From Candidatus Woesebacteria bacterium GW2011_GWB1_39_10 (GTDB lineage: Bacteria; Patescibacteriota; Microgenomatia; UBA8517), in NCBI GenBank assembly GCA_000993205.1, contig LBVU01000003.1, forward strand, positions 85,820 to 149,819: a DNA stretch of 64,000 bases. The letters run 5' to 3'. The stretch's first letter is position 1. Each line of letters opens with the position of its first letter. The position numbers were made by a program, and so were the translations under genes. This document shows, piece after piece, positions 5,054-52,402 of the stretch. The notes below the pieces were generated by a model. The model was not told where the DNA came from and ran no database searches. It saw nothing but the letters and a program-made list of their open reading frames with translations.

Positions 5054-5641
5054 TTACACTTTCATTTTACTCAATATTTCTCTCAATTGCACGAAATCGA
5101 CCTTTTCTGCTTCCAGTACTTTCCCATTCCTTAGAGATGCGGCAGGGTGATACATTGGGATAACTGTTAACTGTTGATTGTTTACTGTTAAATTGAACAC
5201 TTTTCCGTGGACTCCAGAGATGAAAACATCTGACAAAAATTTTGCCATAGAAAACCTACCCAATGTAATTACTATTTTTGGTTCGATAATTTCAATTATT
5301 TTGTCCAGATATTTCCCGTATGCCGATATTTCCTCAGGGAGCGGATCGCGGTTTTCAGGGGGTCTATGGTGAACGATATTTGTTATAAACACCTTTTTCC
5401 TTTCGAGGCCGGCAAGAAGTAAGAGCTTGTCTAAAAGTTTTCCCGCCTGCCCCACAAATGGCAGACCTTGTTCATCTTCGTTTCTCCCTGGCCCCTCCCC
5501 GATACAGAGAATTGAGGCCTCGGTATTTCCCGATCCGAAAACCAATTTGTTTGCTCCTTTTTTGAGAGGAAGCGAGTCGTCTTTCTCCATCTCATCTTTC
5601 AACTCGTGTAATTTCTTATATTTTGATTTCATATATTGCAT
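5054..5641 (-). CDS. Uracil-DNA glycosylase, family 4
   Basis: 'CIGEGPGRNEDEQGLPFVGQAGKLL' and 'MYHPAA' motifs of family-4 UDG. Confidence 0.85.
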   Translation of the reverse strand: MQYMKSKYKKLHELKDEMEKDDSLPLKKGANKLVFGSGNTEASILCIGEGPGRNEDEQGLPFVGQAGKLLDKLLLLAGLERKKVFITNIVHHRPPENRDPLPEEISAYGKYLDKIIEIIEPKIVITLGRFSMAKFLSDVFISGVHGKVFNLTVNNQQLTVIPMYHPAASLRNGKVLEAEKVDFVQLREILSKMKV

Positions 5642-7080: not shown

Positions 7081-7409
7081 TCATCCTGAATTCATTTCAG
7101 GATCTTCCTTGTCCTGAACTTGTTTCAGGATCTGCGTGAACAAATCCTTGAACTCCGGATTTTTTGTTTTAATCAAATCAATCTTCCATTCTCTATGCAA
7201 TTCTTGAGTTGTTTTTCTCTTTTGATCGCTTCCAATATTTCTTCAAAAACCTCGTAATAAAGAAGTTTGTAAGTCTTATATTTAGAGCTAAACATACTAC
7301 CAAACCCACTTCTATGCCGCGCAATTCTATTAATTAAATTAGAAGTCACCCCAATATACAAAACCGGTTTTTGATTTCCCAAAATGTAAACGAATCCTTG
7401 TTTAGACAT
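7081..7409 (-). pseudogene. GIY-YIG nuclease family protein, frameshifted near 7197
   Basis: 'FVYILGNQKPVLYIGVTSNLINRIARH' GIY-YIG motif. Frame 0 stops at 7173 ('...REKQLKNCIENGRLI*'). The +2 frame continues as the family-typical 'HREWKIDLIKTKNPEFKDL...' to 7081. A single missing G (TGG to TG) would restore '...QLKNWHREWKIDLI...'. Confidence 0.7.
7083..7131. repeat. Two tandem hairpins with YCCTGAA-N5-TTCAGGR stems
   Basis: ATCCTGAA-ttcat-TTCAGGAT (7083-7103) and TCCTGAA-cttgt-TTCAGGA (7112-7130). Related to the hairpins at 7420-7472 and to the infB/dnaK leader elements. Confidence 0.6.
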
Positions 7410-8559: not shown

Positions 8560-9429
8560 TTAAATCCCAATTTTCCAAACACCATTCTCCCTAAATGCAG
8601 GTATTGCCTGTCTTTTAGCGGAGTTGAAAACCCCGGACCCTTCTAATCTATTTATTTTTACATATTCAGTCAGTGTTATTATTTTCAGACCTTTCAGATA
8701 GGTTATTCTTTTATTTAAAGACTCTATCAGGGCTTTGCTGATTATTTTAGTCATTAACTTTATGCTTTTGGTATCGTTAAACTCGTTAAAGGCTAAATAA
8801 TACTCAAGCTTTTCTTTATTTTTAACAATGATGTTTGGAAAACCAAGACTTAATAGTTGGAAGTTCAGTAAAACTCGACCGATTCTTCCGTTTCCGTCAT
8901 TAAAAGGGTGGATTGATTCAAACCCGAGGTGAAAACCAGAAATCTTATCCAAAAAATATTTTGTATTGTCGCTTGAATAACTTAACAACAAATCAGAAAT
9001 TAAACCTTCAATTTTTTCTGGTGGAGCGCCAATATGCGTCCCTACGCGAACATTTTCCGTCCCATTCCTAAATCTTCCCGAAATTTTGTCATTAATATTA
9101 TCTAAGAGCATTTTATGGAGAAACAAAATTACATGAATATCTAAATCAGTTCTTTCTTTATTTCTCAAATATTCAAAAATCCGGGCCAAATTTTTAGCCT
9201 CAAAAACCTCCCTTAAACTAACATCACGGGGAACCTCCATTTCCATGAGGATTTTTTCTGTCTCTTTCAAGGTAAGAGTCGAGTTTTCAATAGCATTGCT
9301 GTTATAGACACTCTCGGCGATTTCAGCCTCGTCTATTAAATTAAGCAAAGAGGATTTTCCTACCCTTCGTTGATCAAATTCCTTTTTGAGCTCATCGATT
9401 TTGGCTTTTGTAGAAGTTCCAACTGTCAT
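8560..9429 (-). CDS. Fic/Doc family protein (Fido AMP-transferase) with an N-terminal inhibitory motif
   Basis: Canonical Fic motif 'HPFNDGNGRIGR'. N-terminal 'SNAIEN' matches the (S/T)xxxE(G/N) auto-inhibitory helix motif (class II arrangement). Confidence 0.85.
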   Translation of the reverse strand: MTVGTSTKAKIDELKKEFDQRRVGKSSLLNLIDEAEIAESVYNSNAIENSTLTLKETEKILMEMEVPRDVSLREVFEAKNLARIFEYLRNKERTDLDIHVILFLHKMLLDNINDKISGRFRNGTENVRVGTHIGAPPEKIEGLISDLLLSYSSDNTKYFLDKISGFHLGFESIHPFNDGNGRIGRVLLNFQLLSLGFPNIIVKNKEKLEYYLAFNEFNDTKSIKLMTKIISKALIESLNKRITYLKGLKIITLTEYVKINRLEGSGVFNSAKRQAIPAFRENGVWKIGI

Positions 9430-9516: not shown

Positions 9517-9534
9517 TTCCGAAGTCTTTCCTTG

Positions 9535-9563
9535 CCCTTCCGTAGCCTTGGCGAAGGAGGGTC
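9535..9563 (+). repeat. GC-rich ~29-bp repeat family, copy A (intergenic)
   Basis: 'CCCTTCCGTAGCCTTGGCGAAGGAGGGTC'. See copies at 29001, 29481, 49411 and 49945. Confidence 0.7.
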
Positions 9564-9695: not shown

Positions 9696-10523
9696 ATGGC
9701 CAAAACTTCTAAGATTGCATTATTTGAGGGGAATAAAATACGCAGGCATTGGGATAACAATAAAGAATTGTGGTATTTTTCTGTTGTCGACGTTGTCCAA
9801 ACACTAACAGATCAACCAGATTTTACCAGGGCCCGTAAATATTGGAATAAATTAGCAGAAAGACTTCGAAAAGAAGGAAGCGAGTCGGTGACAAAATGTC
9901 ACCAACTGAAAATGAAATCCTCTGATGGCAAATACTATCTTACTGATGTGGCGGACACTGAAACAATGTTACGTTTAATTCAGTCAATCCCCTCCCCAAA
10001 AGCCGAGCCTTTCAAATTATGGCTGGCCAGCGTAGGTTATGAACGATTGGAAGAAACTGCCGATCCGGAATTGGCTATTAATCGCGCTTTAAAAACATAT
10101 TTACAAAAAGGCTACAGCAGAGAATGGATCAACCAGCGTTTAAAAAGTATTGAAATTCGAAAAGAATTAACTGATGAATGGGAAAGCCGTGGGGTAAAAG
10201 AAGGGTTGGAATTTGCAATTTTAACCAATGAAATTACTGAAGCCTGGGCCGGGTTAACTACTAAACAATACAAAAATCTCAAAGGATTAAAGAAAGAGAA
10301 CTTAAGAGACAATATGACTAACTTGGAATTAGTTTTAAACATGTTGGCAGAAACAGCCACAACTGAAATTTCTCAAAAAAGAAAACCCAAAAACTTTCCT
10401 GAAAACAAAAAGGTTGCCAAAGAAGGAGGAACTGTGGCGGGGAACGCAAGACGCGAAATAGAATCAAAAACAGGTAAAAAAGTGATTACCGGAAAGAATG
10501 CTAAGAAATTGAAACTTATATGA
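9696..10523 (+). CDS. DNA-damage-inducible protein D (DinD)-like / Bro-N domain protein
   Basis: 'IALFEGNKIRRHWDNNKELWYFSVVDVVQTLTD...IQSIPSPKAEPFKLWLASVGYERLEE' matches the DinD/Bro-N antirepressor-type family from memory. Confidence 0.75.
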   Translation: MAKTSKIALFEGNKIRRHWDNNKELWYFSVVDVVQTLTDQPDFTRARKYWNKLAERLRKEGSESVTKCHQLKMKSSDGKYYLTDVADTETMLRLIQSIPSPKAEPFKLWLASVGYERLEETADPELAINRALKTYLQKGYSREWINQRLKSIEIRKELTDEWESRGVKEGLEFAILTNEITEAWAGLTTKQYKNLKGLKKENLRDNMTNLELVLNMLAETATTEISQKRKPKNFPENKKVAKEGGTVAGNARREIESKTGKKVITGKNAKKLKLI

Positions 10524-15766: not shown

Positions 15767-17197
15767 CTAGCGGATGGATACTATCACGTCACCCACCCCG
15801 AAATCAAGCTGAGGTTCAAGTATCGCTCCGAATTCTTCGGAAGGTCCAACCGAGGCAACCTCATTTTTTTGTTTTCTGATTGAAACTATTTTTGCCTTTC
15901 CTATTGTTTTTTCGTTCCTTAAAAGAACGACTGTGTCACCTTTTGTGATTCTGCCGCTAACTACTTTTGCGCCGGCAACTTTTTTGTTATTAAAAGGAAA
16001 ACTCGCCAATATGTTTGCGCGTCCTATTTCCTGGATCTTACCTTTTTTAAGTATTTCTTCCAACCTCTGTATAAACTCATAAATTATTTCAAATCTTTCC
16101 AATCTCACATTCTCCGCTTCTGCCAGTTTGGTCACATCGCTTCCTATTTTGGACTCAAAAGAAAAGATATAAGCATTTCCGGTTTTGGCCGCAATTACAT
16201 CCGACGAATTTATTTCTCCGACTCCGTTATCAACAACAATAATTTTAGGCGGAATGGACGCGATAATTGCTTCCAGTGCCCCCGCATTACTAGCCTTAAT
16301 TATTATCGGGATCTCGTCTTCCCGAAGCCGCCTAAGATCAAAAGTTCCTCGAGCCTTCGGAGGCGCAGACCCCGAACTTGCTTCAGGGTTTTCGCCAACT
16401 CTGGCTCCAACCGGCGGAACCAGGCTAAAACCAATAACTTTCGCGGGGTACCCCGGCAAGACTTCGCGAATTGTTTTTCCTTTATCATCAAATAATCCGC
16501 GTACTTTGCAAAGAACTTCTTCGGCAAAAATTGTCTGACCCACCTTTATACTGCCGTTTCTGACAACTACTGAAGCCACCTGACCCATCTTTTCCTTGTT
16601 TGACTCAATAACGACACCTTCAAGATCTGCCGCCGGGTCCCCTTTTAAATCGGCGACTTCAGACATTAGAATAATCATTTCTAATAGTTCCTTTATCCCC
16701 GTCCCGATTTTTGCCGAAACCGAGAAAAAAGGAACATCTCCACCACGTCCTTCAAAAAAAACCTGCTCTTTTTCAAGCTGTCCTTTAAGCGCCTCAACAT
16801 TAACCCCGACAACGTCTGCCTTAGTTCCCGCAACAAGAAATGGGATTTTAGCATCCCGTATTATTTGTAAGGCTTCCTTGGTCTGGGGAGCAACTCCATC
16901 GTCTTGAGCAACCACAAGTACGGCAATATCGGCAATTTTAGCTCCGCGACTGCGCATCTTGGTAAATGCCGCATGTCCCGGAGTATCTATGAAGGTTATT
17001 TTTTTATTTATCCCGCCTGTGGACGGGACCTCAATTACACTGGCCCCTATTGCTTGTGTTATTCCTCCCGCCTCAGCACCAGCCACATTAGTTTTTCTTA
17101 TCGCGTCTAGCAACGTGGTTTTTCCATGATCGACATGGCCGAGCACCACAACAATTGGCGGGCGTGTTTGATTATTTTGATTTTTATTTTCTTCCAT
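15767..17197 (-). CDS. infB: Translation initiation factor IF-2 (short form lacking N-terminal domains)
   Basis: 'VVVLGHVDHGKTTLLDAIR...DTPGH...' G-domain, then domain II and the C-terminal domains. 476 aa. Confidence 0.9.
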   Translation of the reverse strand: MEENKNQNNQTRPPIVVVLGHVDHGKTTLLDAIRKTNVAGAEAGGITQAIGASVIEVPSTGGINKKITFIDTPGHAAFTKMRSRGAKIADIAVLVVAQDDGVAPQTKEALQIIRDAKIPFLVAGTKADVVGVNVEALKGQLEKEQVFFEGRGGDVPFFSVSAKIGTGIKELLEMIILMSEVADLKGDPAADLEGVVIESNKEKMGQVASVVVRNGSIKVGQTIFAEEVLCKVRGLFDDKGKTIREVLPGYPAKVIGFSLVPPVGARVGENPEASSGSAPPKARGTFDLRRLREDEIPIIIKASNAGALEAIIASIPPKIIVVDNGVGEINSSDVIAAKTGNAYIFSFESKIGSDVTKLAEAENVRLERFEIIYEFIQRLEEILKKGKIQEIGRANILASFPFNNKKVAGAKVVSGRITKGDTVVLLRNEKTIGKAKIVSIRKQKNEVASVGPSEEFGAILEPQLDFGVGDVIVSIR

Positions 17198-22334: not shown

Positions 22335-23370
22335 TTTTTACCTCCTCATTAAAAATTTCCTTGAACAACAAGTTCCAGTTCCCATAATTAAATACAATAA
22401 ACACCGCTTTGATTAATGAATTTATTGAAACAAAAATCAAAAACAAAATCGCAATACCAATTATCTGACCAATTCCCGGAAAATGAAACCCATTATCAAA
22501 AGATGGCGCAATCAAAAAGTAACCGGGGATTCCAAATACCAGACCCAAAAGTAAAAGCCCCACGCATCCCGAAGTGCAACCAATAACCGAATTAATAAGA
22601 CCCATAACAAAAGTGGGTATAAAGTTGCCTTTACTTAGGGACAAACCTTTTTTCCAAGCATTCCATGGTGAATAATTTTTAAGAACTATTAAACGCTCCG
22701 CGTATATCGAAAGCATAACAAAAAGAACCATGGAGATGATAAAACCCAATACTCCGACTATTCCAAAAAGAATAAGCCAGATAATTCCGAGCACGGGTAT
22801 TAATAGCTTGATTAGAAAACCAATTCCTATAATGAAAATTATTCCTAAAATTAAAACAGTAGTTATACCTGATGAAATCAAATTGAAAATAATTAAATCT
22901 TTGATTTTGGCGATTCCTTTTGGTGAAACATTTTTTAAGTCAACCGACTCGTCCATATCAGCCATATTAAGTCCCGCTATAAGCGCTCCTTTAGCCCAGG
23001 ACGTCAGCACCCAGATTACGGCAGTTGTAAAAACCGCAACTATTAAAATCAGAAGCCCCAGGAGAATCCACGTTCCGACTGGAATCCCCGTAACCCAATT
23101 TTTAAAAATATTTGTGGCCTCCCCCAAAACGTACGAAGTCTGTTGCCGAATGTTTTGGATATTTGTCGGGCCAGGGCTTAGAGAAGCATTGGGAAGATTT
23201 GTATTTGCACTACCGCCACCACCGGAACCTCCACCGCCTCCGGAACCTCCGCCAAAAGCCGCAAGCACCAATCCCATCACCCACAACCATTTATTTTTCC
23301 AGGTTAGTTCCCAGGAGCGTTTAATTATTTTCCCGTAATCAATATTTTGCATGAAGTTAGACTTTAACAA
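22327..23370 (-). CDS. Polytopic membrane protein with Gly/Ser linker (unknown function)
   Basis: 347 aa. 'GGGSGGGGGSGGGGS' after the first TM, then 6-8 predicted TM segments. Overlaps both flanking RDD genes (8 and 14 nt). Confidence 0.55.
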   Translation of the reverse strand: MLKSNFMQNIDYGKIIKRSWELTWKNKWLWVMGLVLAAFGGGSGGGGGSGGGGSANTNLPNASLSPGPTNIQNIRQQTSYVLGEATNIFKNWVTGIPVGTWILLGLLILIVAVFTTAVIWVLTSWAKGALIAGLNMADMDESVDLKNVSPKGIAKIKDLIIFNLISSGITTVLILGIIFIIGIGFLIKLLIPVLGIIWLILFGIVGVLGFIISMVLFVMLSIYAERLIVLKNYSPWNAWKKGLSLSKGNFIPTFVMGLINSVIGCTSGCVGLLLLGLVFGIPGYFLIAPSFDNGFHFPGIGQIIGIAILFLIFVSINSLIKAVFIVFNYGNWNLLFKEIFNEEVKNE

Positions 23371-24794: not shown

Positions 24795-24822
24795 CACTTC
24801 ATTACTATATAGTAATGAAGTG
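24795..24822. promoter_or_regulatory. 28-bp perfect palindrome CACTTCATTACTAT|ATAGTAATGAAGTG in a divergent promoter region
   Basis: Core TTACTATATAGTAA is shared with the palindromes at 25273-25306 and 48103-48130. Sits 2 nt upstream of the TrpR-like start. Confidence 0.7.
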
Positions 24823-25274: not shown

Positions 25275-25306
25275 ATACTTAATTACTATATAGTAATTAA
25301 GTATTT
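25273..25306. repeat. 34-bp perfect palindrome AAATACTTAATTACTAT|ATAGTAATTAAGTATTT
   Basis: Located between the convergent TrpR-like and dnaJ genes. Second copy of the TTAATTACTATATAGTAATTAA core. Confidence 0.7.
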
Positions 25307-28175: not shown

Positions 28176-28655
28176 TCAGGATAATTGTTTGCTAACAATC
28201 ACCTTCGCATGTCTTACTACATTACCATCTTTAAACTTCCAACCCGTAACAAGAACCTCTGAGATCATATTATCCATCTTTCCGTCAATTACTTCAATAA
28301 CTTCTTGACTGTTTTCGTCAAATTCACTTCCAATTTTAGGATTTATTTCTTCCAAACCTTCTTCAATAAAAACTTTTTTAAATTCCAAAATCGATATCGC
28401 AAGTCCGGAATCTTTTAGATGCTCCTGAGCTTTTTCTAACATGTCCATTATTGGCAGCAGTCTTGAGATTATGCTTAAAGACGAAAATTTTGTCCAAGAA
28501 ATTTTCTCTTCCTCAGTCCTTCGCTTTAAATTATCATAATCCGCCAAAGTTCTTGCCAGTTGGCTTTTCAGCTGTTCCATCTCCAAACTATTCGCTACCA
28601 GGGCTTTGACTGGCCAAGCTTTGCTTATTCGCTTTTCGCTTTTCGCTTTTTTCAT
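28176..28655 (-). CDS. grpE: Nucleotide exchange factor GrpE
   Basis: 159 aa, positioned between hrcA and dnaK, with a GrpE C-terminal pattern. Confidence 0.85.
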   Translation of the reverse strand: MKKAKSEKRISKAWPVKALVANSLEMEQLKSQLARTLADYDNLKRRTEEEKISWTKFSSLSIISRLLPIMDMLEKAQEHLKDSGLAISILEFKKVFIEEGLEEINPKIGSEFDENSQEVIEVIDGKMDNMISEVLVTGWKFKDGNVVRHAKVIVSKQLS

Positions 28656-29413
28656 TGGTTTGCAACTTCCTCAATTAAATTACCAAAATATCTCAAAATC
28701 GGAATGACTGACGCATAGTCTGCTCTGGCGGGGCCAATCACTCCAAGGGCCCCAGGCTTTCCTTTTATACTAAAATGTGTCGAAATTATTCCCGACGTTG
28801 CCAGTTCCGGCATTCCTAATTCTTCACCAAACAAAACTTCCAAGGGTGAAGTAGACTGGAATCCAAAGAAAAGCCTGTCTAGTTTATCAAACTCATCAAA
28901 AATTGAAAATAGATTCTGACAAGCTGCCATTTCTGCAAACTCAGGATTATTAAAAACATAGGAATGTCCAGCCTGCCAAAAGCGGTCCCTCGCCCCGCGA
29001 AGCCCATTGGGTGAAGTGGGGTTTTTTAGTGCCGCTATCGCGAGGGAGCGTGTCCGACTTGCCAAGGCGTGTGTTGCCTCGTCCATGAGTTCGTCGATAT
29101 CGTCCCGAGAGTCCCAAACTTCCTCTTTAGCTTTGACTTCATCGACCAAGCTCATTTGTTTTTCTTCCATAAGTTGATTTATATAAAATTTCATCGCAAG
29201 CGGCGACGGAATTCTTCCTGCTGAGGTATGGGGTTGACGGAGGTAACCGGATTTTGTCAGCGCAACCATTTCGTTTCTGATTGTTGCCGGGGAAACTCCA
29301 AGATTATATTTTTTGTCGAGTGCGTCACTTCCCACAGGTTCGGCAGTTTCGATATATTCATCAATAATCGTCTTTAATATTTGGGTTTGACGGGAAGTAA
29401 GTGAATCAGTCAT
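28652..29413 (-). CDS. hrcA: Heat-inducible transcription repressor HrcA (short)
   Basis: 'LTSRQTQILKTIIDEYIETAEPVGSDAL' N-terminal wHTH. hrcA-grpE-dnaK-dnaJ order. Carries an in-frame GC-rich repeat insertion (29001-29032). Confidence 0.85.
   Translation of the reverse strand: MTDSLTSRQTQILKTIIDEYIETAEPVGSDALDKKYNLGVSPATIRNEMVALTKSGYLRQPHTSAGRIPSPLAMKFYINQLMEEKQMSLVDEVKAKEEVWDSRDDIDELMDEATHALASRTRSLAIAALKNPTSPNGLRGARDRFWQAGHSYVFNNPEFAEMAACQNLFSIFDEFDKLDRLFFGFQSTSPLEVLFGEELGMPELATSGIISTHFSIKGKPGALGVIGPARADYASVIPILRYFGNLIEEVANQ
29001..29032 (+). repeat. GC-rich repeat family, copy B (inside hrcA, translated in-frame as NPTSPNGLRGA)
   Basis: 'CGCCCCGCGAAGCCCATTGGGTGAAGTGGGGT'. Confidence 0.7.
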
Positions 29414-33779: not shown

Positions 33780-35081
33780 ATGATCAAAAAAAATAAAATA
33801 CCAACAATTTTAGGCATTATTATACTTCTTGCCGGAATTTTTGCCGGGGTCTTCTTTTTGGGCATGAATCAAGTTTTTAAAATTGGGGCAGATAGTTCCA
33901 TCGCTCCAAAAGATATTCGTATAAGTAATATTGACAACAGTTCCGCAACTATATCGTGGATCACAGATAAAGAAACTTTTAGTTTTGTTTCTTGGGGAGA
34001 GGGTCAAACGTCGTTAAACAAAATTGAAAGGGAGGGAAACGAAAAACTCTCAATTCATACCATTTCACTCACGGGGCTCAAACCCGGCACTAAATATTTC
34101 TACAAAATAAATTCCGGCGGAACGATGTTCGATAATAAAGGAATTCCGTGGCAGTTTTCTACCGGACCGGATTTGGGAATTAATCAGAAAGGTTTTCTTA
34201 TATCGGGCTCTGTCATAAACGCTTCCGGAGAACCGGAAAGGGAAGTCCTTGTCTATATAAATATCGACGGATATCTTCTTTCTACACTAACATCAAACAC
34301 GGGAAACTTTGTTTTTCAATTAGGGTCGGTCAGAACTCAAGATCTGGCCGACTATGCGCAAATTGACAAAGCCCAAACACTGCTACAGATTTCGGTTCAA
34401 GCGGGAGACCACGGGGTCGCTTCTGCGCAGATTTTTCCCCAATCTGCCAACCCCGTTCCACCCATGGTCCTGGGGCAGGTCTATGATCTAAGGAGTCTTC
34501 AGCCTTCCGAAAGTGGCCAAATTCCAACTGCAAACTTAAGCCTCCCGGAAGATGCAACAAAAGAATCAAAATTTTTTATCCCCATAGCAACGGGTTCTCC
34601 TACCCCGACCAGTGTAATACTGGAAAGCCTCAATGAAGGAGAAATTGTAACGAATTCCCGACCGGAATTTTTTGGCCGTGGCCCGGGAGGAGAAAAAATC
34701 ACCATTACAATTCAATCAGATCCGATTTCGCAAGATATGTTTATCGCCAGTGACGGCACTTGGACGTTTAGCGCACCAGTCGATTTAGGGGCAGGCGCTC
34801 ACTCAATTACAATTTCTTGGATTGATTCAAACGGAATAACCAGAACCCTTACCAGAAACTTCATTGTCCAAGCCAGTGAAAATCCTGCTTTTACTGCATC
34901 TGATTCAGGAATATTCCCCTCACCCAGCGCTTCTCCGGGGGCAACACCCACCACAACACCAACCGCCTCCCCTAAACCAATTCCGGTTACTGGTGAAACA
35001 GCGCCCACTCTTATATTGTTTGCGATAGGTGTAGCAATAATGATTTTCGGCACCTTTATCTGGAAAATGTCTGAAAATTAA
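33780..35081 (+). CDS. Surface protein with Fn3-like and Ig-like domains and an LPXTG-like C-terminal sorting signal
   Basis: 'ISNIDNSSATISWIT...LKPGTKYFYKI' Fn3/PAP-N-like. C-terminus 'IPVTGETAPTLILFAIGVAIMIFGTFIWKMSEN' reads as sortase motif + hydrophobic segment + charged tail. Confidence 0.6.
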   Translation: MIKKNKIPTILGIIILLAGIFAGVFFLGMNQVFKIGADSSIAPKDIRISNIDNSSATISWITDKETFSFVSWGEGQTSLNKIEREGNEKLSIHTISLTGLKPGTKYFYKINSGGTMFDNKGIPWQFSTGPDLGINQKGFLISGSVINASGEPEREVLVYINIDGYLLSTLTSNTGNFVFQLGSVRTQDLADYAQIDKAQTLLQISVQAGDHGVASAQIFPQSANPVPPMVLGQVYDLRSLQPSESGQIPTANLSLPEDATKESKFFIPIATGSPTPTSVILESLNEGEIVTNSRPEFFGRGPGGEKITITIQSDPISQDMFIASDGTWTFSAPVDLGAGAHSITISWIDSNGITRTLTRNFIVQASENPAFTASDSGIFPSPSASPGATPTTTPTASPKPIPVTGETAPTLILFAIGVAIMIFGTFIWKMSEN

Positions 35082-37895: not shown

Positions 37896-38453
37896 ATGAA
37901 AAAATCTAAATTTGTAACTGGTTTAATAATAATTATTACCCTGATCTTGGCGGGTGTTGCCATTTTTACCGCTATCAGGCTGTATCAACTTCGACAAACA
38001 TCCGTGGCTCCAAATGTTCCGGAAAGTAATCCCAAAGCCGCCGGTAGTTGCAGTCTTTCTTTCACCTTAACAACATCCACCGCTTCCCCAACTGCAACAG
38101 CTACACCAACCGCTACCGCAACGGCCACAGCCACAGCAACTGCCACGGCAACCGCTACAGCTACCGCGACTGCTACCGCAACCGCAACTGCAACAGCTAC
38201 ACCAACCGCTCCACCGAACTCATGCGGCGGAACTTGCGGAAGCAATTTTAACTGTGGAAGCGAATTGGTTTGCTACAACGGTTACTGTAGAAACCCGTCT
38301 TGTACAGCTGAAAATGACTGTGTTTGTAACGGTACACCGGGTCCAACCGCAACACCACCGACTCTTCCACAATCAGGAACGGATTGGCCGACTATGGTAG
38401 GAGCCGGACTTGGAATATTGGTTATCTTGGGGTCAATCTTACTGGCACTTTGA
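37896..38453 (+). CDS. Membrane-anchored protein with (Ala-Thr)n repeat, Cys-rich module and C-terminal TM
   Basis: 'TATATPTATATATATATATATATATATATATATATATPTAPP', then 'CGGTCGSNFNCGSELVCYNGYCRNPSCTAENDCVCNG', then 'LPQSGTD'+TM. Confidence 0.6.
   Translation: MKKSKFVTGLIIIITLILAGVAIFTAIRLYQLRQTSVAPNVPESNPKAAGSCSLSFTLTTSTASPTATATPTATATATATATATATATATATATATATATATPTAPPNSCGGTCGSNFNCGSELVCYNGYCRNPSCTAENDCVCNGTPGPTATPPTLPQSGTDWPTMVGAGLGILVILGSILLAL
38089..38215 (+). repeat. In-frame (GCN-ACN)n hexanucleotide-type repeat encoding (AT)n
   Basis: About 21 tandem Ala-Thr codon pairs. GC-rich relative to the surroundings. Confidence 0.7.
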
Positions 38454-43868: not shown

Positions 43869-45803
43869 ATGAATGACGTAGACAAGCTAACAAACGATTT
43901 AAACAAAGACCAGTTCGCTGCCGTAATTTATACCGCAGGACCCCTTCTGGTTTTGGCCGGAGCGGGATCGGGAAAGACAAAAGTTTTAACACACCGTGTG
44001 GCCTATTTTATCCAACAAGGCCTAATTAAACCTGAAAACGCGCTTCTTTTAACATTCACCAACAAAGCAGCCACAGAGATGCGGCAAAGAATTAACGACC
44101 TACTCGGTCAGTCATCAGCCAACAGTAAACAGTCAACGGTTTTCTCCGGAACATTTCATAGTTTTTGTGCCAAAGTTCTCAGAATTGACGGAAAACATAT
44201 TGGAATTCCAATAAACTTCATTATTTACGATGATCAAGACCAAAAAGACGCCGTTAAACAAATTTTGGAGAGTATCAACATTTCAACTGATCAGTTTGCC
44301 CCGGCTTCAATTTTAAACGGAATCGGAGAAGCAAAGAATCAAATGTTGACTCCGGCCGAGTACAAGAATTTTGTCAGAGGTGAGTGGCAAGAGGTGGTTG
44401 CCAAGGTCTACGAGCAGTACGAAAAAATGCTCAAGGATATTGGGGCTCTGGATTTTGATGACCTGATGATCAAAACAGTCCAACTTTTCAAGGAGGTTCC
44501 GGAAATTCTTACAAAATGGCAAACAACTCTAACACATATTTTCGTTGACGAATGGCAAGATACAAATAAAATCCAGTACACCCTAACAAAACTTTTAGTC
44601 GGAAAAAATCGCAACATTACAGCGGTGGGGGATGCTTCCCAATCGATTTATTCATGGCGAGGAGCTGACTATCGAAATATAACACTACTTACGAGGGACT
44701 ACCCGGATATTAAAATCGTTAATTTAGAACAAAATTACAGATCGACTCAAAACATTCTTGATGCCGCCAACCTGGTCATTTCAAAAAATACAAATCATCC
44801 TATTTTGAAACTTTGGACAGATAAACACGCTGGATCTAAAATCAAGCTCTACTCTGCCAGAAATGGTTTTGATGAGGCAGATTTTGTTGTTTCTGAAATT
44901 CAATCCCGAGATTCAAAGTATGGCGACTTCGCCATACTTTATCGCACCAATGCCCAATCCCGTGTTTTAGAGGAGGCCTTCTTACATGCCGGCATTCCTT
45001 ATTCCTTAGTTGGAGGGACAAGATTTTACGACCGTAAAGAAGTCAAGGATATCATTAGCTACTTAAAATATTTAGTTAATCCAAAAGATTCAGTTTCCCG
45101 AAAGAGGATTGAGAAAATCGGAATTCGTCGTTTTGAAAAATTAGAAGAATTTCGCAACTCCCAAAATTCCCTAAATTCCCTAACCACCTTGGAAATGCTT
45201 GATGCTGTTATACAAAAAACCGATTATCTTTCTTTGTTTCAAAAGGAATCGGAAGAAAATTTGGCCCGTCTGGAAAACATAAAGGAATTAAGAAGCGTCG
45301 CCACAGAATTCCCCGCTATCAGTGATTTTTTGGAAAATGTTGCGCTTGTGGAATCAACCCAAAAACCTGCTAATTCCGCCTCAATTGCTAAAGATTCCGT
45401 GACCCTTATGACCCTGCATGCGGCCAAGGGATTGGAATTCCCGATCGTTTTTATAGTTGGCATGGAGGAGGGACTTTTCCCCCACAGTAGAAGCTTAATG
45501 GACGGAAATCAGCTGGAGGAGGAACGTCGTTTGGCATATGTGGGTATCACCCGTGCCAAAGATGTTCTTTATTTAACTTATGCCAGTTCCCGTCTTTACT
45601 TCGGAGAAAGAATCAGTAACCCCCCGAGTAGGTTTATAATGGACATTCCAGAGGACTTGATCGAGAATATAGATGCTAATATATGGAAGGATGACTTGTC
45701 CTCCAAAGCCTTGGCGTCGGAGGATCTAAAATTGGATTCTGTAGAAGATATCAAGGGAACTTTTGACGATATAATTGAGAAATATTTACCACATGACGAC
45801 TAA
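43869..45803 (+). CDS. UvrD/PcrA/Rep-family DNA helicase
   Basis: 'LVLAGAGSGKTKVLTHRVAYF', 'IFVDEWQDTN', 'GTFHSF', 'VGITRAK'. Confidence 0.9.
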   Translation: MNDVDKLTNDLNKDQFAAVIYTAGPLLVLAGAGSGKTKVLTHRVAYFIQQGLIKPENALLLTFTNKAATEMRQRINDLLGQSSANSKQSTVFSGTFHSFCAKVLRIDGKHIGIPINFIIYDDQDQKDAVKQILESINISTDQFAPASILNGIGEAKNQMLTPAEYKNFVRGEWQEVVAKVYEQYEKMLKDIGALDFDDLMIKTVQLFKEVPEILTKWQTTLTHIFVDEWQDTNKIQYTLTKLLVGKNRNITAVGDASQSIYSWRGADYRNITLLTRDYPDIKIVNLEQNYRSTQNILDAANLVISKNTNHPILKLWTDKHAGSKIKLYSARNGFDEADFVVSEIQSRDSKYGDFAILYRTNAQSRVLEEAFLHAGIPYSLVGGTRFYDRKEVKDIISYLKYLVNPKDSVSRKRIEKIGIRRFEKLEEFRNSQNSLNSLTTLEMLDAVIQKTDYLSLFQKESEENLARLENIKELRSVATEFPAISDFLENVALVESTQKPANSASIAKDSVTLMTLHAAKGLEFPIVFIVGMEEGLFPHSRSLMDGNQLEEERRLAYVGITRAKDVLYLTYASSRLYFGERISNPPSRFIMDIPEDLIENIDANIWKDDLSSKALASEDLKLDSVEDIKGTFDDIIEKYLPHDD

Positions 45804-48102: not shown

Positions 48103-48130
48103 AACTTAATTACTATATAGTAATTAAGTT
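48103..48130 (+). terminator. Third copy of the AT-rich palindrome (AACTTAATTACTAT|ATAGTAATTAAGTT) followed by TTTTTAG
   Basis: Lies in the convergent intergenic region. A hairpin plus T-run on the + strand fits a terminator. The shared core with 24795 and 25273 suggests it is also a regulator site. Confidence 0.55.
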
Positions 48131-48131
48131 T

Positions 48132-51092
48132 TTAGCTTCTGGATTTGCAAAACATTGAGAACTCACATTTTCCCTGACAAAAAAAGTTGTTGTTGCATTT
48201 GAAATCCGAATTTTCGATTTCGTCACGGATCTTTAAAATTTCTTCTTTTACTTTTTCCAGATCTTTCTCTGTCCTGGTTGTAGAAATTTTTTCCTGAGTA
48301 TCCAAATAATAAAGTGAAAGTTTTATATCTTCCGGTTTTATCTTTCTTATATTGCTCATCGCTAATGCATAAAAAGATAATTGAAGATCTTTATTAACTT
48401 CTTTTTGAGTAGGAATCGTTGCCCCGGTCTTATAGTCAATAATTTCTATTCTGCTTCCACCCAAATCATCAACCCTGTCGATTGTGCCGCCGATCCGCAA
48501 GGATCGTCCTGAACTCGTTTCAGGACCTAACGGTAGAACAAATTTTCCCTCAAGCAAAATAGTTCTTATCTTTGGATCATACCCATTCTTTATAAATCCC
48601 TGAAGATAAAGCTCGCCTTTCTTGTAGAATTCCTGTTTATGTTTTTTGTTTAAATATCCATCTTCGAGGAAAGATTCTTTATATATTTCAATCAATCTTT
48701 CCGAAAAACCCCGTAAAGCCGCAGGCGTTGTGGGGTTCAATGAAATTTCTTGATAGAATTTTTTAAGCGTCTCATGAATCGAAATTCCGAAACTACTCGA
48801 TGCAAAAGCTTTTGTCGGAAGTTTGTAAACATATTTAAGTTTGTAATGTAGCGGACATGTTTGGAATGTTTCGATTTGACTCACCGAAAGGTATTCTACC
48901 TTTCGTGGCTCTATGCTATATGGTTTATGCTTTATGGGTTCGCTACCATATTGCTTATGGCTTAAAGCATATGGCTTTTCATTGGCATAAGGCATACGGC
49001 TTGTGGCATCTTCCCCAAGCGTTTCATACACGAACGGGCTAATTTTCTTCTTTCTCTTTGCCTCACCATAGAAATCCGCCGCGCTAAAGTACAATTTTTC
49101 CTTTGCTCTGGTCATTCCAACATAAAAAAGCCTTCGCTCTTCCTGCAAATGAAAATCCCCTTCCGGTAAAACTTCTTTTATTAATTCTTGTGGAATTGGA
49201 ATTTGTTCATGACGTTCGCGTCCAGGAAATCTCTCCCCCACCAGGTTAACCAAAAACACGATCGGAAATTCAAGGCCTTTCGAAGAATGAACTGTCAAAA
49301 TATTTACGGCGTTATTTTCCTGCCAGTCGCCATCTGTAACATTGGGGCTCTCCCCCACCTCAAGCAAAAGATCTATATAGTCCACAACCTCAGCAACCCA
49401 ATTTTTGCTTGCCCCGCGAAGCCTTGGCGAAGTGGGGTCGTCTTCATAGGATTTAATCTTTTCAAAAAACTTGGCAATGTTTTTGGCTTTGGTGTCCTCC
49501 GAATTTTCTATCAACTTTTGCAACAACCCAATCTCCCGAATACAATCGTATAAAATTTCCCCGGCTGTCTGAGACTTAATTACTTTTAAATGCTTATCGA
49601 TAATCAACAAAAGTTTTTTGATTTGTTCATTTCCTGATTCTGCCGCGATTTCAAAAACCGACAAGCTTCTCTTTTTTGCTGCAGATGAAATTTTAATAAG
49701 CTCCAATGGAGATATATCAAAAATGTCAGATGATAATAGTCTGTAAAAAGATTCTGAATCTTCCGGGTTATATAAAATTTTGAGATATGAAATCAAATCA
49801 ACAATTTCCTCTTTTTCAAATAAATTACTTGGTCCCAAAAATTGATTTGGTATCCCCCGTCTTTCTAGTTCTCTTACAAATGGATCTGCATGGTTGTTCG
49901 CACGTATTAAAATAGCCATGTCTTTAAAATCATATCGTGCGAACCTTCCCGAAGCCTTGTGCGAAGGAGGGTTGGTTGTCAATTTGAGGATCTCCTTCAC
50001 AACAGAGTGCGCCTCATCCCCAACATTGGCGGCATGAACAAATTTTATTTCCGACTTCCCGCCCCTAACTTCCGACTTCAATCGCTTGTCTATCCCCTCC
50101 ACAACTTCCAACCTGTCCGGGTTGTTGTGTTGAATTAAATCATATGCCCTATCCAGAATTTCTTGAATAGAACGGTAGTTTTTTGTAAGAACTATTATTT
50201 TTGTTTTTGGAAACGTTTTTCTAAATTGAATAATGTTAGAAACCGCCGCTCCGCGGAAACGGTAAATTGATTGATCATCGTCCCCCACCACTGTAATATT
50301 TTGAGATTTGCCAGCCAAAAGAATGGCGAGTTGATTTTGCGCAAAATTTGTATCCTGAAACTCATCTATTAAAATATATTTAAATTTCTCTTGATAAATT
50401 TTAAGAATATTAGGACGTTCTTTGAAAAGTTTTATCGTATTTGTGATGAGGTCACCGAAATCCATTACGTTTTCTTTTATTTTTAGATCACTATATTTTT
50501 TATAAGCATTGGCCAACTCCACATTTTTCTTGGCTTCTAGTTTTTCCTCATCACTCAATTTTAAATTTTTAATTTTAAATTTTAAATTCACCCATGCGAC
50601 ATAGTCGCTGGGTGCTACGCATTCATCCTGCAGTCTATTAAAGTGTTGCAAAAGTCCATCAATAAACTTATTCGGGTTCCCCAAGGGTCTAAAATAATCT
50701 AGATCGAGGTCAAATAGGTTTTTTCTGACTAGATCAATTGCTTGCGCTTCTGTCATTAATTTATAACTCGGAGATAGACCAATGTGTATCGCATTATCCC
50801 GGAGAATTTGATCGCAAAAAGAATGAAATGTCATAACCCACATTTGTGTATAACCATATGGGAGTGCCACATCAATTCTTTCTTCCATTTCCTTTGCCCC
50901 TTTTTCTGTAAAAGTCAGCGCCAATATCTCTTCGGGTTTGGCCAGTCCACTCATTATTAAGTGTTTAACCCGCTCGGAAATTACTGTGGTTTTGCCAGTC
51001 CCCGCGCCGGCGATAATGAGAAGCGGTCCATCGCCAAACTTGACGGCTGCGATTTGCTCTTTGTTGAGTTTTAAATTTGAAGTTTCTATCAT
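48132..51092 (-). CDS. UvrD-family helicase fused to a C-terminal Cas4/AddB-type PD-(D/E)xK nuclease with Cys cluster
   Basis: N-terminus 'LIIAGAGTGKTTV', 'ILIDEFQDTN'. C-terminus 'TCPLHYKLKY...RIEIIDYKTG...CNNNFFCQGKCEFSMFC'. Contains a KPY-type low-complexity linker and two in-frame GC-rich repeat copies. Confidence 0.8.
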   Translation of the reverse strand: MIETSNLKLNKEQIAAVKFGDGPLLIIAGAGTGKTTVISERVKHLIMSGLAKPEEILALTFTEKGAKEMEERIDVALPYGYTQMWVMTFHSFCDQILRDNAIHIGLSPSYKLMTEAQAIDLVRKNLFDLDLDYFRPLGNPNKFIDGLLQHFNRLQDECVAPSDYVAWVNLKFKIKNLKLSDEEKLEAKKNVELANAYKKYSDLKIKENVMDFGDLITNTIKLFKERPNILKIYQEKFKYILIDEFQDTNFAQNQLAILLAGKSQNITVVGDDDQSIYRFRGAAVSNIIQFRKTFPKTKIIVLTKNYRSIQEILDRAYDLIQHNNPDRLEVVEGIDKRLKSEVRGGKSEIKFVHAANVGDEAHSVVKEILKLTTNPPSHKASGRFARYDFKDMAILIRANNHADPFVRELERRGIPNQFLGPSNLFEKEEIVDLISYLKILYNPEDSESFYRLLSSDIFDISPLELIKISSAAKKRSLSVFEIAAESGNEQIKKLLLIIDKHLKVIKSQTAGEILYDCIREIGLLQKLIENSEDTKAKNIAKFFEKIKSYEDDPTSPRLRGASKNWVAEVVDYIDLLLEVGESPNVTDGDWQENNAVNILTVHSSKGLEFPIVFLVNLVGERFPGRERHEQIPIPQELIKEVLPEGDFHLQEERRLFYVGMTRAKEKLYFSAADFYGEAKRKKKISPFVYETLGEDATSRMPYANEKPYALSHKQYGSEPIKHKPYSIEPRKVEYLSVSQIETFQTCPLHYKLKYVYKLPTKAFASSSFGISIHETLKKFYQEISLNPTTPAALRGFSERLIEIYKESFLEDGYLNKKHKQEFYKKGELYLQGFIKNGYDPKIRTILLEGKFVLPLGPETSSGRSLRIGGTIDRVDDLGGSRIEIIDYKTGATIPTQKEVNKDLQLSFYALAMSNIRKIKPEDIKLSLYYLDTQEKISTTRTEKDLEKVKEEILKIRDEIENSDFKCNNNFFCQGKCEFSMFCKSRS
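49411..49439 (+). repeat. GC-rich repeat family, copy D (in-frame in helicase-nuclease; encodes DDPTSPRLRGA)
   Basis: 'GCCCCGCGAAGCCTTGGCGAAGTGGGGTC'. Confidence 0.7.
49945..49973 (+). repeat. GC-rich repeat family, copy E (in-frame in helicase-nuclease; encodes NPPSHKASGR)
   Basis: 'CTTCCCGAAGCCTTGTGCGAAGGAGGGTT'. One extra base relative to copy D, so it is translated partly in a different frame. Confidence 0.7.
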
Positions 51093-52372: not shown

Positions 52373-52402
52373 CCACTTAAATACTGTACAGTATTTAAGT
52401 GG
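52373..52402. promoter_or_regulatory. 30-bp perfect palindrome CCACTTAAATACTGT|ACAGTATTTAAGTGG
   Basis: Overlaps the 3' end of the MBL gene, upstream of the repeat-protein gene. No U-tract in the transcribed direction. Confidence 0.55.

Follow-up and report, generated by a model that had tools for sequence, protein, structure and literature searches.

A GC-rich hairpin repeat inserted in frame within a helicase-nuclease gene of a Woesebacteria genome, and its relatives across bacteria

The window analyzed here is a stretch of 64,000 nucleotides (64 kb) from a groundwater genome, that of Candidatus Woesebacteria bacterium GW2011_GWB1_39_10 (contig LBVU01000003.1), and our subject is a short GC-rich hairpin repeat, family 1, of which two copies, D and E, lie within one minus-strand gene of that window. 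The gene (48132-51092) encodes a protein of 986 aa in which UvrD-helicase, UvrD_C and PDDEXK_1 domains are detected; the PD-(D/E)XK nuclease part has a Cas4-like Cys cluster at its C-terminus. An earlier note on this DNA, made from the sequence alone, had called the gene a helicase-nuclease, and that label is correct. The product is 100% identical to a protein from Candidatus Woesebacteria bacterium GW2011_GWA2_40_7, which belongs to the Candidate Phyla Radiation (CPR), and three NCBI accessions record the identical protein. Among solved structures, PcrA (1PJR) is the closest to it by sequence (E = 6e-81). The gene bears four inserts: E, D and F, which belong to family 1, and G, which belongs to a second hairpin family.

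Copy D lies at 49408-49437 on the plus strand and consists of a CTTG tag (49408-49411), the arms CCCCGC (49412-49417) and GTGGGG (49432-49437), which include one G-T pair, and the loop GAAGCCTTGGCGAA. Copy E lies at 49942-49973, also on the plus strand, 534 nt from D and in the same open reading frame (ORF). Its stem CCTTCC/GGAGGG (49944-49949 and 49966-49971) is extendable to AACC...GGTT, its loop is CGAAGCCTTGTGCGAA, and it has no CTTG tag. Both copies have a G+C content of 59-69%, versus about 37-40% for the window. The loop of E contains an extra T (GCCTTGTGCG vs. GCCTTGGCG in D), and E has one additional base between the 5′ stem and GAAG. On the minus strand, D reads D-PTSPRLRGA (aa 551-561) and E reads NPPSHKASGRF (aa 374-384), and the peptides that the earlier note gave for them, DDPTSPRLRGA and NPPSHKASGR, are correct translations. 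The same note proposed that a 1-nt indel causes the two copies to be translated in shifted frames, which holds for only part of their length. In gene sense, D is GAC CCC ACT TCG CCA AGG CTT CGC GGG GCA and E is AAC CCT CCT TCG CAC AAG GCT TCG GGA AGG. The frame is the same up to the common TCG codon, and it is only 3′ of the extra base of the indel in E that the reading shifts by one base (AGG CTT CGC vs. AAG GCT TCG).

Could the similarity between D and E be an accident of GC-rich, low-complexity sequence in an AT-rich genome? The one thing that speaks for it is how short the repeat is. When the window is searched with the 20-mer AAGCCTTGGCGAAGGAGGGT, allowing up to 3 mismatches, we find 3 matches, versus 0 in 100 shuffles, so the resemblance is better than chance for this composition. 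Scanning for GC-rich hairpins built around an AGCC core, we find six sites on the plus strand (some in two stem registers) and 0 on the minus strand, while shuffled windows give 0.3 matches on average. A profile hidden Markov model built solely from the copies of other bacteria finds, using nhmmer, copies A (E = 1.1e-7), D (2.5e-7), C (6e-5) and E (0.009) of the window, and the sequences flanking the loops of the copies are complementary. Chance is thereby refuted, and we give it essentially no credence; the two repeat copies reported by the earlier note are real.

We next consider how D and E sit relative to orthologs, using a protein alignment of 40 orthologs (59-80% identity) and a codon alignment of seven genomes, in which the DNA of six orthologous helicase genes and of the window is threaded by codons onto the protein alignment. 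In both alignments the D and E segments correspond to gaps in most orthologs, and neither is aligned to conserved residues. E is a net insertion of 36 nt, filled in the window only among the seven genes compared at the DNA level. The site is empty in P0008, where CTGACCAAA directly adjoins AGATACGAT, and in P0010, and there is no hairpin at it in P0004 or P0007. The same loop bears a small unrelated palindrome, CCTAGCTCCGAGCTACC, in P0005 and P0009 (loci L122 and L127), and other hairpin-like peptides in the more distant orthologs P0063 and P0106. Site D is empty in four orthologs, P0008, P0005, P0007 and P0009 (GAAGACGAAAACAAAAATGCAGGAGTA); P0004 has the hairpin of the window with one substitution; P0002 and P0011 also bear the PTSPRLRGA insert in the protein alignment; and P0010 (L126) has a different hairpin that ends at the same CAAG. 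At site F, better-preserved copies are found in P0007 and P0009 (CCCCGC-GAAGCCTTGCGCGAA-GTGGGG in the latter), P0005 has an E-type loop with a different, compensated stem, and P0008, P0004 and P0010 have no hairpin, with an outright gap in P0008 only. As judged from these aligned sequences, the comparison shows one gene that has acquired predicted hairpins at several sites in separate lineages, and the helicase-nuclease gene appears to be a recurrent hairpin target in this clade. P0007 (L125) also has a hairpin insert of its own, read DPPSHKATEGQ, at a new site near aa 487 of the window protein, absent from the window.

In an AlphaFold model of the helicase-nuclease, which we use for local loop assignment only (mean predicted local distance difference test score, pLDDT, of 66.7, with residues 578-727 poorly modeled), both E (377-384) and D (555-562) are loops between helices with pLDDT <50. 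F lies between the helices 764-785 and 796-807, and G in the turn of a beta-hairpin. Alignment to PcrA places E in a gap that immediately precedes the strand FAVLYR, which we take to be helicase motif IV, and D in a poorly conserved stretch, presumably late in the 2B domain given the domain limits of PcrA. The gaps in most orthologs and the low-confidence loops of the model bear out the proposal of the earlier note that the ORF tolerates D and E as insertions.

There are six family-1 copies in the window, all on the plus strand. D, E and F lie in the helicase-nuclease gene, C in the neighboring PcrA/UvrD gene and B in a putative hrcA, so that 5/6 are intragenic, and A is intergenic. Copy F (48707-48737) is decayed, with an AACCCCG/TGTGGGGTT-type stem and loop TAAAGCCGCAGGCGTTG, and it reads NPTTPAALRGF (aa 786-796). 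Copy C (45695-45724) has a CTTG tag followed by TCCTCC-AAAGCCTTGGCGTC-GGAGGA; it lies on the sense strand of the PcrA/UvrD gene (43869-45803, plus strand), and it is a net insertion of 24 nt relative to four orthologous PcrA genes in a codon alignment of 5 genes. Copy B (28989-29021), in the putative hrcA (28652-29413, minus strand), has a CTCG tag and the same stem as D, CCCCGC-GAAGCCCATTGGGTGAA-GTGGGG. Copy A (9531-9561) has a CTTG tag and CCTTCC-GTAGCCTTGGCGAA-GGAGGG, and lies between the divergent ORFs 8560-9429 (minus strand) and 9696-10523 (plus strand). The six have an architecture in common, in which an outer stem of 6-8 bp is followed by GWA opposite GAA, an inner stem of 2-4 bp and a small loop. 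Their stems differ in a compensatory manner, being CCTTCC/GGAGGG in A and E, TCCTCC/GGAGGA in C, and CCCCGC/GTGGGG in B and D. Subfamilies can be recognized: the CCCCGC/GTGGGG stem occurs at B, D and site F of P0009, and the E-type loop GCCTTGTGCG at E and at site F of P0005.

The family reaches far beyond this window. Its consensus is CTTG-YCCnC-CGWAGCCTTGGCGAAG-GnGGR, and conserved information is limited to 30 positions (-9 to +21), with nothing beyond. As predicted from the sequences, the canonical unit is thus a hairpin of 30 nt, with an unpaired 5′ C(T/C)TG, a stem of 5-6 bp, YCCNC(C)/(G)GNGGR, and the 16-nt loop CGWAGCCTTGGCGAAG, which is itself able to fold into a 3x3 G-A-type internal loop, 2 bp and a CUUG tetraloop. 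In a scan of one genome per GTDB species, the loop pattern CRWAGCCTTGGCGAAGNNGG occurs at at least 120 loci in more than 10 phyla, with an estimated 70 or so matches by chance. What distinguishes these matches is the stem: in almost all of the genome matches listed, the bases flanking the loop pattern are complementary. The three stem pairs that the pattern leaves free are each Watson-Crick in 103-106 of 127 copies, versus 45-64 when shuffled, and all three are Watson-Crick at once in 69/128 genome copies and in 62/124 viral copies, for which the expectation by chance, estimated from the shuffle means, is ~7%. Across family-1 copies the stems are GC, 5-8 bp long, and covary. The loop is also present at at least 120 loci of IMG/VR viral contigs. 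The tag is CTTG or CCTG in 45/127 copies (~35%), and GTAG is found only inside the loop. Carriers include Verrucomicrobiota, Planctomycetota, Acidobacteriota, Bacteroidota, Alpha-, Gamma- and Deltaproteobacteria, Patescibacteria, Dependentiae, Cyanobacteria, Elusimicrobia, Armatimonadetes and Omnitrophota, and, among cultured bacteria, Niastella soli, Brevifollis gellanilyticus, Cerasicoccus arenae, Bradyrhizobium frederickii and Brevundimonas.

At low-GC loci in these other genomes, some copies lie just past gene ends, and others inside long ORFs. The hosts checked for intragenic copies comprise an ATP-dependent DNA ligase, a RecF/SMC-type ATPase, GluRS, TatD, MurB, a prepilin peptidase, a SHOCT-domain protein and two proteins without a Pfam match, and one copy lies at the predicted start of a transglutaminase/TPR protein. 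One patescibacterial locus (L013) has two copies (1828-1847 and 5063-5082), both in repair or replication genes, one of RecF/SMC type and the other an ATP-dependent DNA ligase. In a Caulobacter locus (L048, 4315-4419) two tandem copies adjoin a tRNA gene.

What is conserved in these copies is the nucleotides and not the peptide, as the earlier note had argued. Conservation at the DNA level follows from the frame shift between D and E 3′ of the indel, together with other copies that are read from the other strand. The reverse possibility is that D and E are selected peptide modules (for example, proline/arginine-rich surface linkers useful to the helicase) and that their nucleotide similarity is secondary. 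A common motif, P-T-[ST]-P...LRG, does appear in the same frame in D, in F and in B, which reads NPTSPNGLRGA. But a frame shift affects half the length of E, C reads SSKALASED from the opposite strand, and A is intergenic. The copies in long ORFs of other bacteria are found on either strand and in several frames, and the arms, around a constant loop, covary so that pairing is preserved and not the amino acids. The peptide explanation, to which we attach hardly any probability, is already refuted by the data on frame and strand. The canonical unit equals 10 codons, and its consensus translation is stop-free in five or six of the six frames; the exception is the GTAG loop variant, seen in copy A, which makes a TAG in one frame. 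The length of 10 codons and the scarcity of stops make it likely that the unit survives inside genes.

Insert G represents the second hairpin family. It lies at 48506-48528 on the plus strand (cGTCCTGAA-CTCGT-TTCAGGAC), reads GPETSSGR (aa 856-863) and amounts to a net gain of 18 nt; it is common to the window and P0009, and absent from P0008, P0005, P0004, P0007 and P0010. The consensus of this family is (C)GTC-CTGAA-CTYGT-TTCAG-GAC, and the window holds four copies of it, all on the plus strand: G, a head-to-tail dimer at 7083-7133 between listed ORFs, and a single copy at 16369-16391. Thus, all the hairpins of the window, 6/6 of family 1 and 4/4 of the second family, are on the plus strand whatever the direction of the gene. 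The GC skew of the window is negative in 30 of 32 two-kb bins. The co-orientation of all ten hairpins hints at an orientation bias linked to replication.

These properties recall the REPs (repetitive extragenic palindromes), which have been sorted into superfamilies that bear a GTAG or a CGTC tag (Di Nocera, De Gregorio and Rocco 2013, BMC Genomics 14:522, PMC3733652). Intragenic REPs are reported there in genes for UvrD/REP helicases, recBCD, uvrA, DNA ligase and tRNA synthetases, and the supplement includes a CGTC-2 REP within a 991-aa UvrD/REP helicase of Kosmotoga olearia as well as the CGTC-2 peptide RHSELVSGS. The likeness of insert G and its family to the CGTC-2 REPs is drawn from back-translation of that peptide, and the tag of the family is CGTC- or AGTC-like. 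Family 1 resembles the GTAG and CGTC REPs of that article in being a GC-rich stem-loop within 20-40 nt with an unpaired terminal tetranucleotide, in its compensatory-stem subfamilies, and in its dispersed copies, some of them in frame within ORFs. It differs from them in its tag, C(T/C)TG and not GTAG or CGTC, and in its long (14-16 nt), conserved and internally structured loop (PMC3733652). The five text supplementary files of PMC3733652 contain neither the six-frame peptides of family 1 nor its core GCCTTGGC. In the broad sense of the term, family 1 is a short GC-rich palindrome (hairpins of 26-31 nt with stems of 6-8 bp, and covariation in 127 copies) present in many dispersed copies (six in 64 kb, next to four of the second family), but it is not mainly extragenic, given the intragenic majority in the window and the mixed locations elsewhere. 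Nor does it form the inverted doublets known as REPINs: the family-1 copies of the window are single, and only the second family is dimeric. The same loop in more than 10 phyla and in viral contigs, and the lack of a linked REP-associated tyrosine transposase (RAYT), also set it apart from REPs.

As in the Rickettsia palindromic elements (RPEs), the copies are inserted in frame and leave the ORF intact. RPEs, which Ogata and colleagues are said to have described from 2000 on, are palindromic repeats that reportedly lie in frame in Rickettsia coding genes, are tolerated at surface positions and are read in different frames. RPE-1 is ~100-150 bp long, the short RPE-4 and RPE-6 are CGTC REPs, and RPEs are not known from outside Rickettsia. 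In-frame palindromic inserts read in different frames are thus common to both, whereas family 1 is spread across bacteria. Elhai and colleagues reportedly found, in 2008, small dispersed repeats of ~21-27 nt in heterocyst-forming cyanobacteria, hairpin-like and mobile, in genes and structural RNAs; they are a different sequence family and taxonomically narrow. Finally, in the REPIN-RAYT system, a single-copy HUH/Y1 transposase that works on single-stranded DNA is thought to mobilize non-autonomous hairpins in trans, and REPINs, the inverted REP doublets, are mostly inherited vertically within a lineage (Bertels and Rainey 2011, PMC3116915). Family 1 departs from this system in its single copies, in having no known RAYT, and in a loop common to phyla and phage contigs. 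The kind of element is therefore known, REP/RPE-like intragenic palindromic repeats, since REPs inside UvrD/Rep, RecBCD and UvrA genes have been reported (PMC3733652). Family 1 itself is a new and unusually widespread relative of REPs and RPEs. A full-text search of the literature library returned no paper with the loop sequence or its six-frame peptides, and a literature search found none tying REP or RAYT to CPR; family 1, the breadth of its occurrence and the fact that CPR have it seem not to have been described before.

How did the hairpins come to be where they are? We consider it probable that a non-autonomous hairpin has spread at the DNA level, and that selection then favored in-frame insertions without stop codons in permissive loops. 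Under this proposal, a miniature, GC-rich stem-loop of the REP/RPE class would be copied into the chromosome as DNA, and the survivors within genes would be those insertions that keep the frame, bring in no stop codon, and fall in structurally permissive loops. The agent that we favor, by analogy, is a trans-acting enzyme that acts on hairpins of single-stranded DNA, of the HUH/Y1 type (RAYT- or IS200-like). We infer such an agent from the REP analogy, the 5′ tag at the foot of the hairpin, the lack of a linked gene, and the plus-strand orientation of all ten hairpins. Pfam searches of 146 ORFs (≤400 aa, within 350 bp of a copy) in other genomes reveal no recurring family, Y1 families included, so the element is solitary and does not belong to any larger mobile unit. 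As linked selfish genes we tried GIY-YIG nucleases, the four-helix protein of 23S intervening sequences (23S-IVS) and Y1 transposases, and none is enriched (GIY-YIG occurs in 2/146 ORFs). The related complete Woesebacteria genome (L122) has a 23S_rRNA_IVP gene (four-helix bundle, PF05635) at 22370-22759, ~9.5 kb from the helicase gene, with no hairpin association. An origin from a universal RNA or a plasmid element was rejected, as the consensus has no match in 5,426 E. coli genomes and gives only noise in PLSDB.

Several observations weigh against spread of this kind. No transposase or mobilizing gene has been identified, nor does a Pfam family recur in the neighboring ORFs of up to 400 aa. 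The tag is only moderately conserved (the ~35% given above), and neither E nor F has it. REPs are typically confined to a lineage and lie mostly outside genes, while the family-1 loop is the same across phyla and the window copies are mostly intragenic. Orthologs have different hairpins at the same position, at sites D and F, which could mean replacement by recombination and not independent transposition. The stems show no excess of G-T over A-C mismatches (18 vs. 17), so that nothing points to one functional single strand. And we see no empty/filled polymorphism within one population; scans of Joint Genome Institute (JGI) metagenomes with exact flanks showed neither allele of site E, empty or filled, and so speak neither for nor against mobility.

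Two other explanations need to be weighed against mobile spread. One is that the hairpins are cis elements selected by the host (a site for protein binding or processing, or a structure that modulates transcription, mRNA stability or replication) and that they regulate helicase and repair genes. A 16-nt loop that recurs over many phyla and phage contigs while its stems covary is the pattern of a recognized motif, many intergenic copies lie just past gene ends, and at site F the hairpin structure is preserved in orthologs despite sequence change. The genomic distribution agrees as well: 4/5 of the intragenic family-1 copies of the window are in two UvrD-family genes that make up 7.6% of its length (post hoc binomial p ~4e-4), although this clustering may be explained by the tolerance of large multi-domain proteins. 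At the loci of five related Woesebacteria (14-23 kb), every family-1-type hairpin found lies within the helicase-nuclease gene; within ~20 kb the only other match to the AGCC-core scan is one in L125 with an unrelated loop. A bias to repair genes is also reported for other REP families (PMC3733652). Yet the orientation of the hairpins tracks the chromosome strand and not transcription, with C in sense and the other four (B, D, E and F) in antisense orientation; G-U shows no excess over A-C, insert-free close orthologs exist at every site, and F is decaying in the window. Rfam has nothing at its gathering score in the window, and nothing over the hairpins at E-values up to 10 in five loci with copies; scans for tRNA and tmRNA yield nothing that covers the hairpins. 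Two specific forms were rejected: a strand-specific RNA hairpin, as the G-T wobbles seen on the plus strand of the window are not general among the 127 copies, and an intrinsic terminator, as a T run follows only a few copies in the flanks shown. Altogether, we regard host-selected cis elements as unlikely.

The other explanation is spread by recombination and not transposition, in which break repair or replication restart would copy an existing hairpin through gene conversion, template switching or snap-back synthesis. It would account for hairpins that differ at the same site between constant flanks (including the CAAG tag at D), as in P0010 versus the window at D and P0005 versus P0009 at F; there is no linked transposase to contradict it, and the host genes themselves encode repair and recombination proteins. 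But new sites lack evident homology to donor flanks, conserved information ends at the borders of the element, and a unit of conserved length with a terminal tag better fits a site-specific enzyme. We judge copying by recombination to be improbable, and mobile spread of the hairpin is the reading that we carry forward.

REPs are not usually so broadly distributed, and the breadth of the family suggests a recognition machinery common to its carriers or horizontal carriage in phages. Carried further, family 1 would not be ordinary selfish DNA: the 16-nt loop would be the recognition site of a widespread, partly phage-borne system acting in trans, and its recurrence in UvrD-family, ligase and RecF-type genes would reflect a real interaction between hairpins and repair helicases. 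We find this quite doubtful. If true, the elements might show a preference for entering, or persisting in, genes that control how stable they are, and perhaps tune those genes. Independently of that question, the copies in the helicase-nuclease extend the in-frame "decoration" of proteins in the style of REPs and RPEs to the tiny genomes of the CPR, for which we found no earlier report. They also repeat, independently, the unexplained observation of 2013 that repeats of this kind cluster in UvrD/Rep-type and other repair genes (PMC3733652). In practice, segments derived from the repeat can be recognized by the six-frame peptides PPSPRLRRT, SFAKATADK, RLRQGYGGQ, EALAKA, RSLGEGG and KPWRRR, and can confuse or inflate metagenome alignments and ORF calls.

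Some further features of the helicase-nuclease gene and the window are worth recording. P0121 (KKR26508), from another metagenome-assembled genome and in the same 90% cluster, is a protein otherwise identical to that of the window that lacks two stretches, at 50049-50069 and 50916-51020. This near-identical variant keeps D, E, F and G, and differs by these two unrelated deletions only. The 21 nt of the first deletion (aa 342-348) lie between the 10-nt direct repeats GAAGTCGGAA, and their loss looks like a slippage deletion, since the ortholog P0008 has the long form. The second, of 105 nt (aa 25-59), includes the Walker A motif and may be an assembly artifact. A perfect AT-rich palindrome of 26 nt, ACTTAATTACTATATAGTAATTAAGT, occurs four times in the window (24796-24821, 25277-25302, 48104-48129 and 52375-52400). 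The four are external to the listed ORFs or at their edges, and one comes directly 3′ of the stop codon of the helicase-nuclease; the palindrome may serve as an operator or as a bidirectional terminator. Lastly, a low-complexity ACn/GCn repeat with a 12/18-nt period, probably coding, spans 38073-38228, and a weaker relative of it lies at 34920-34979.

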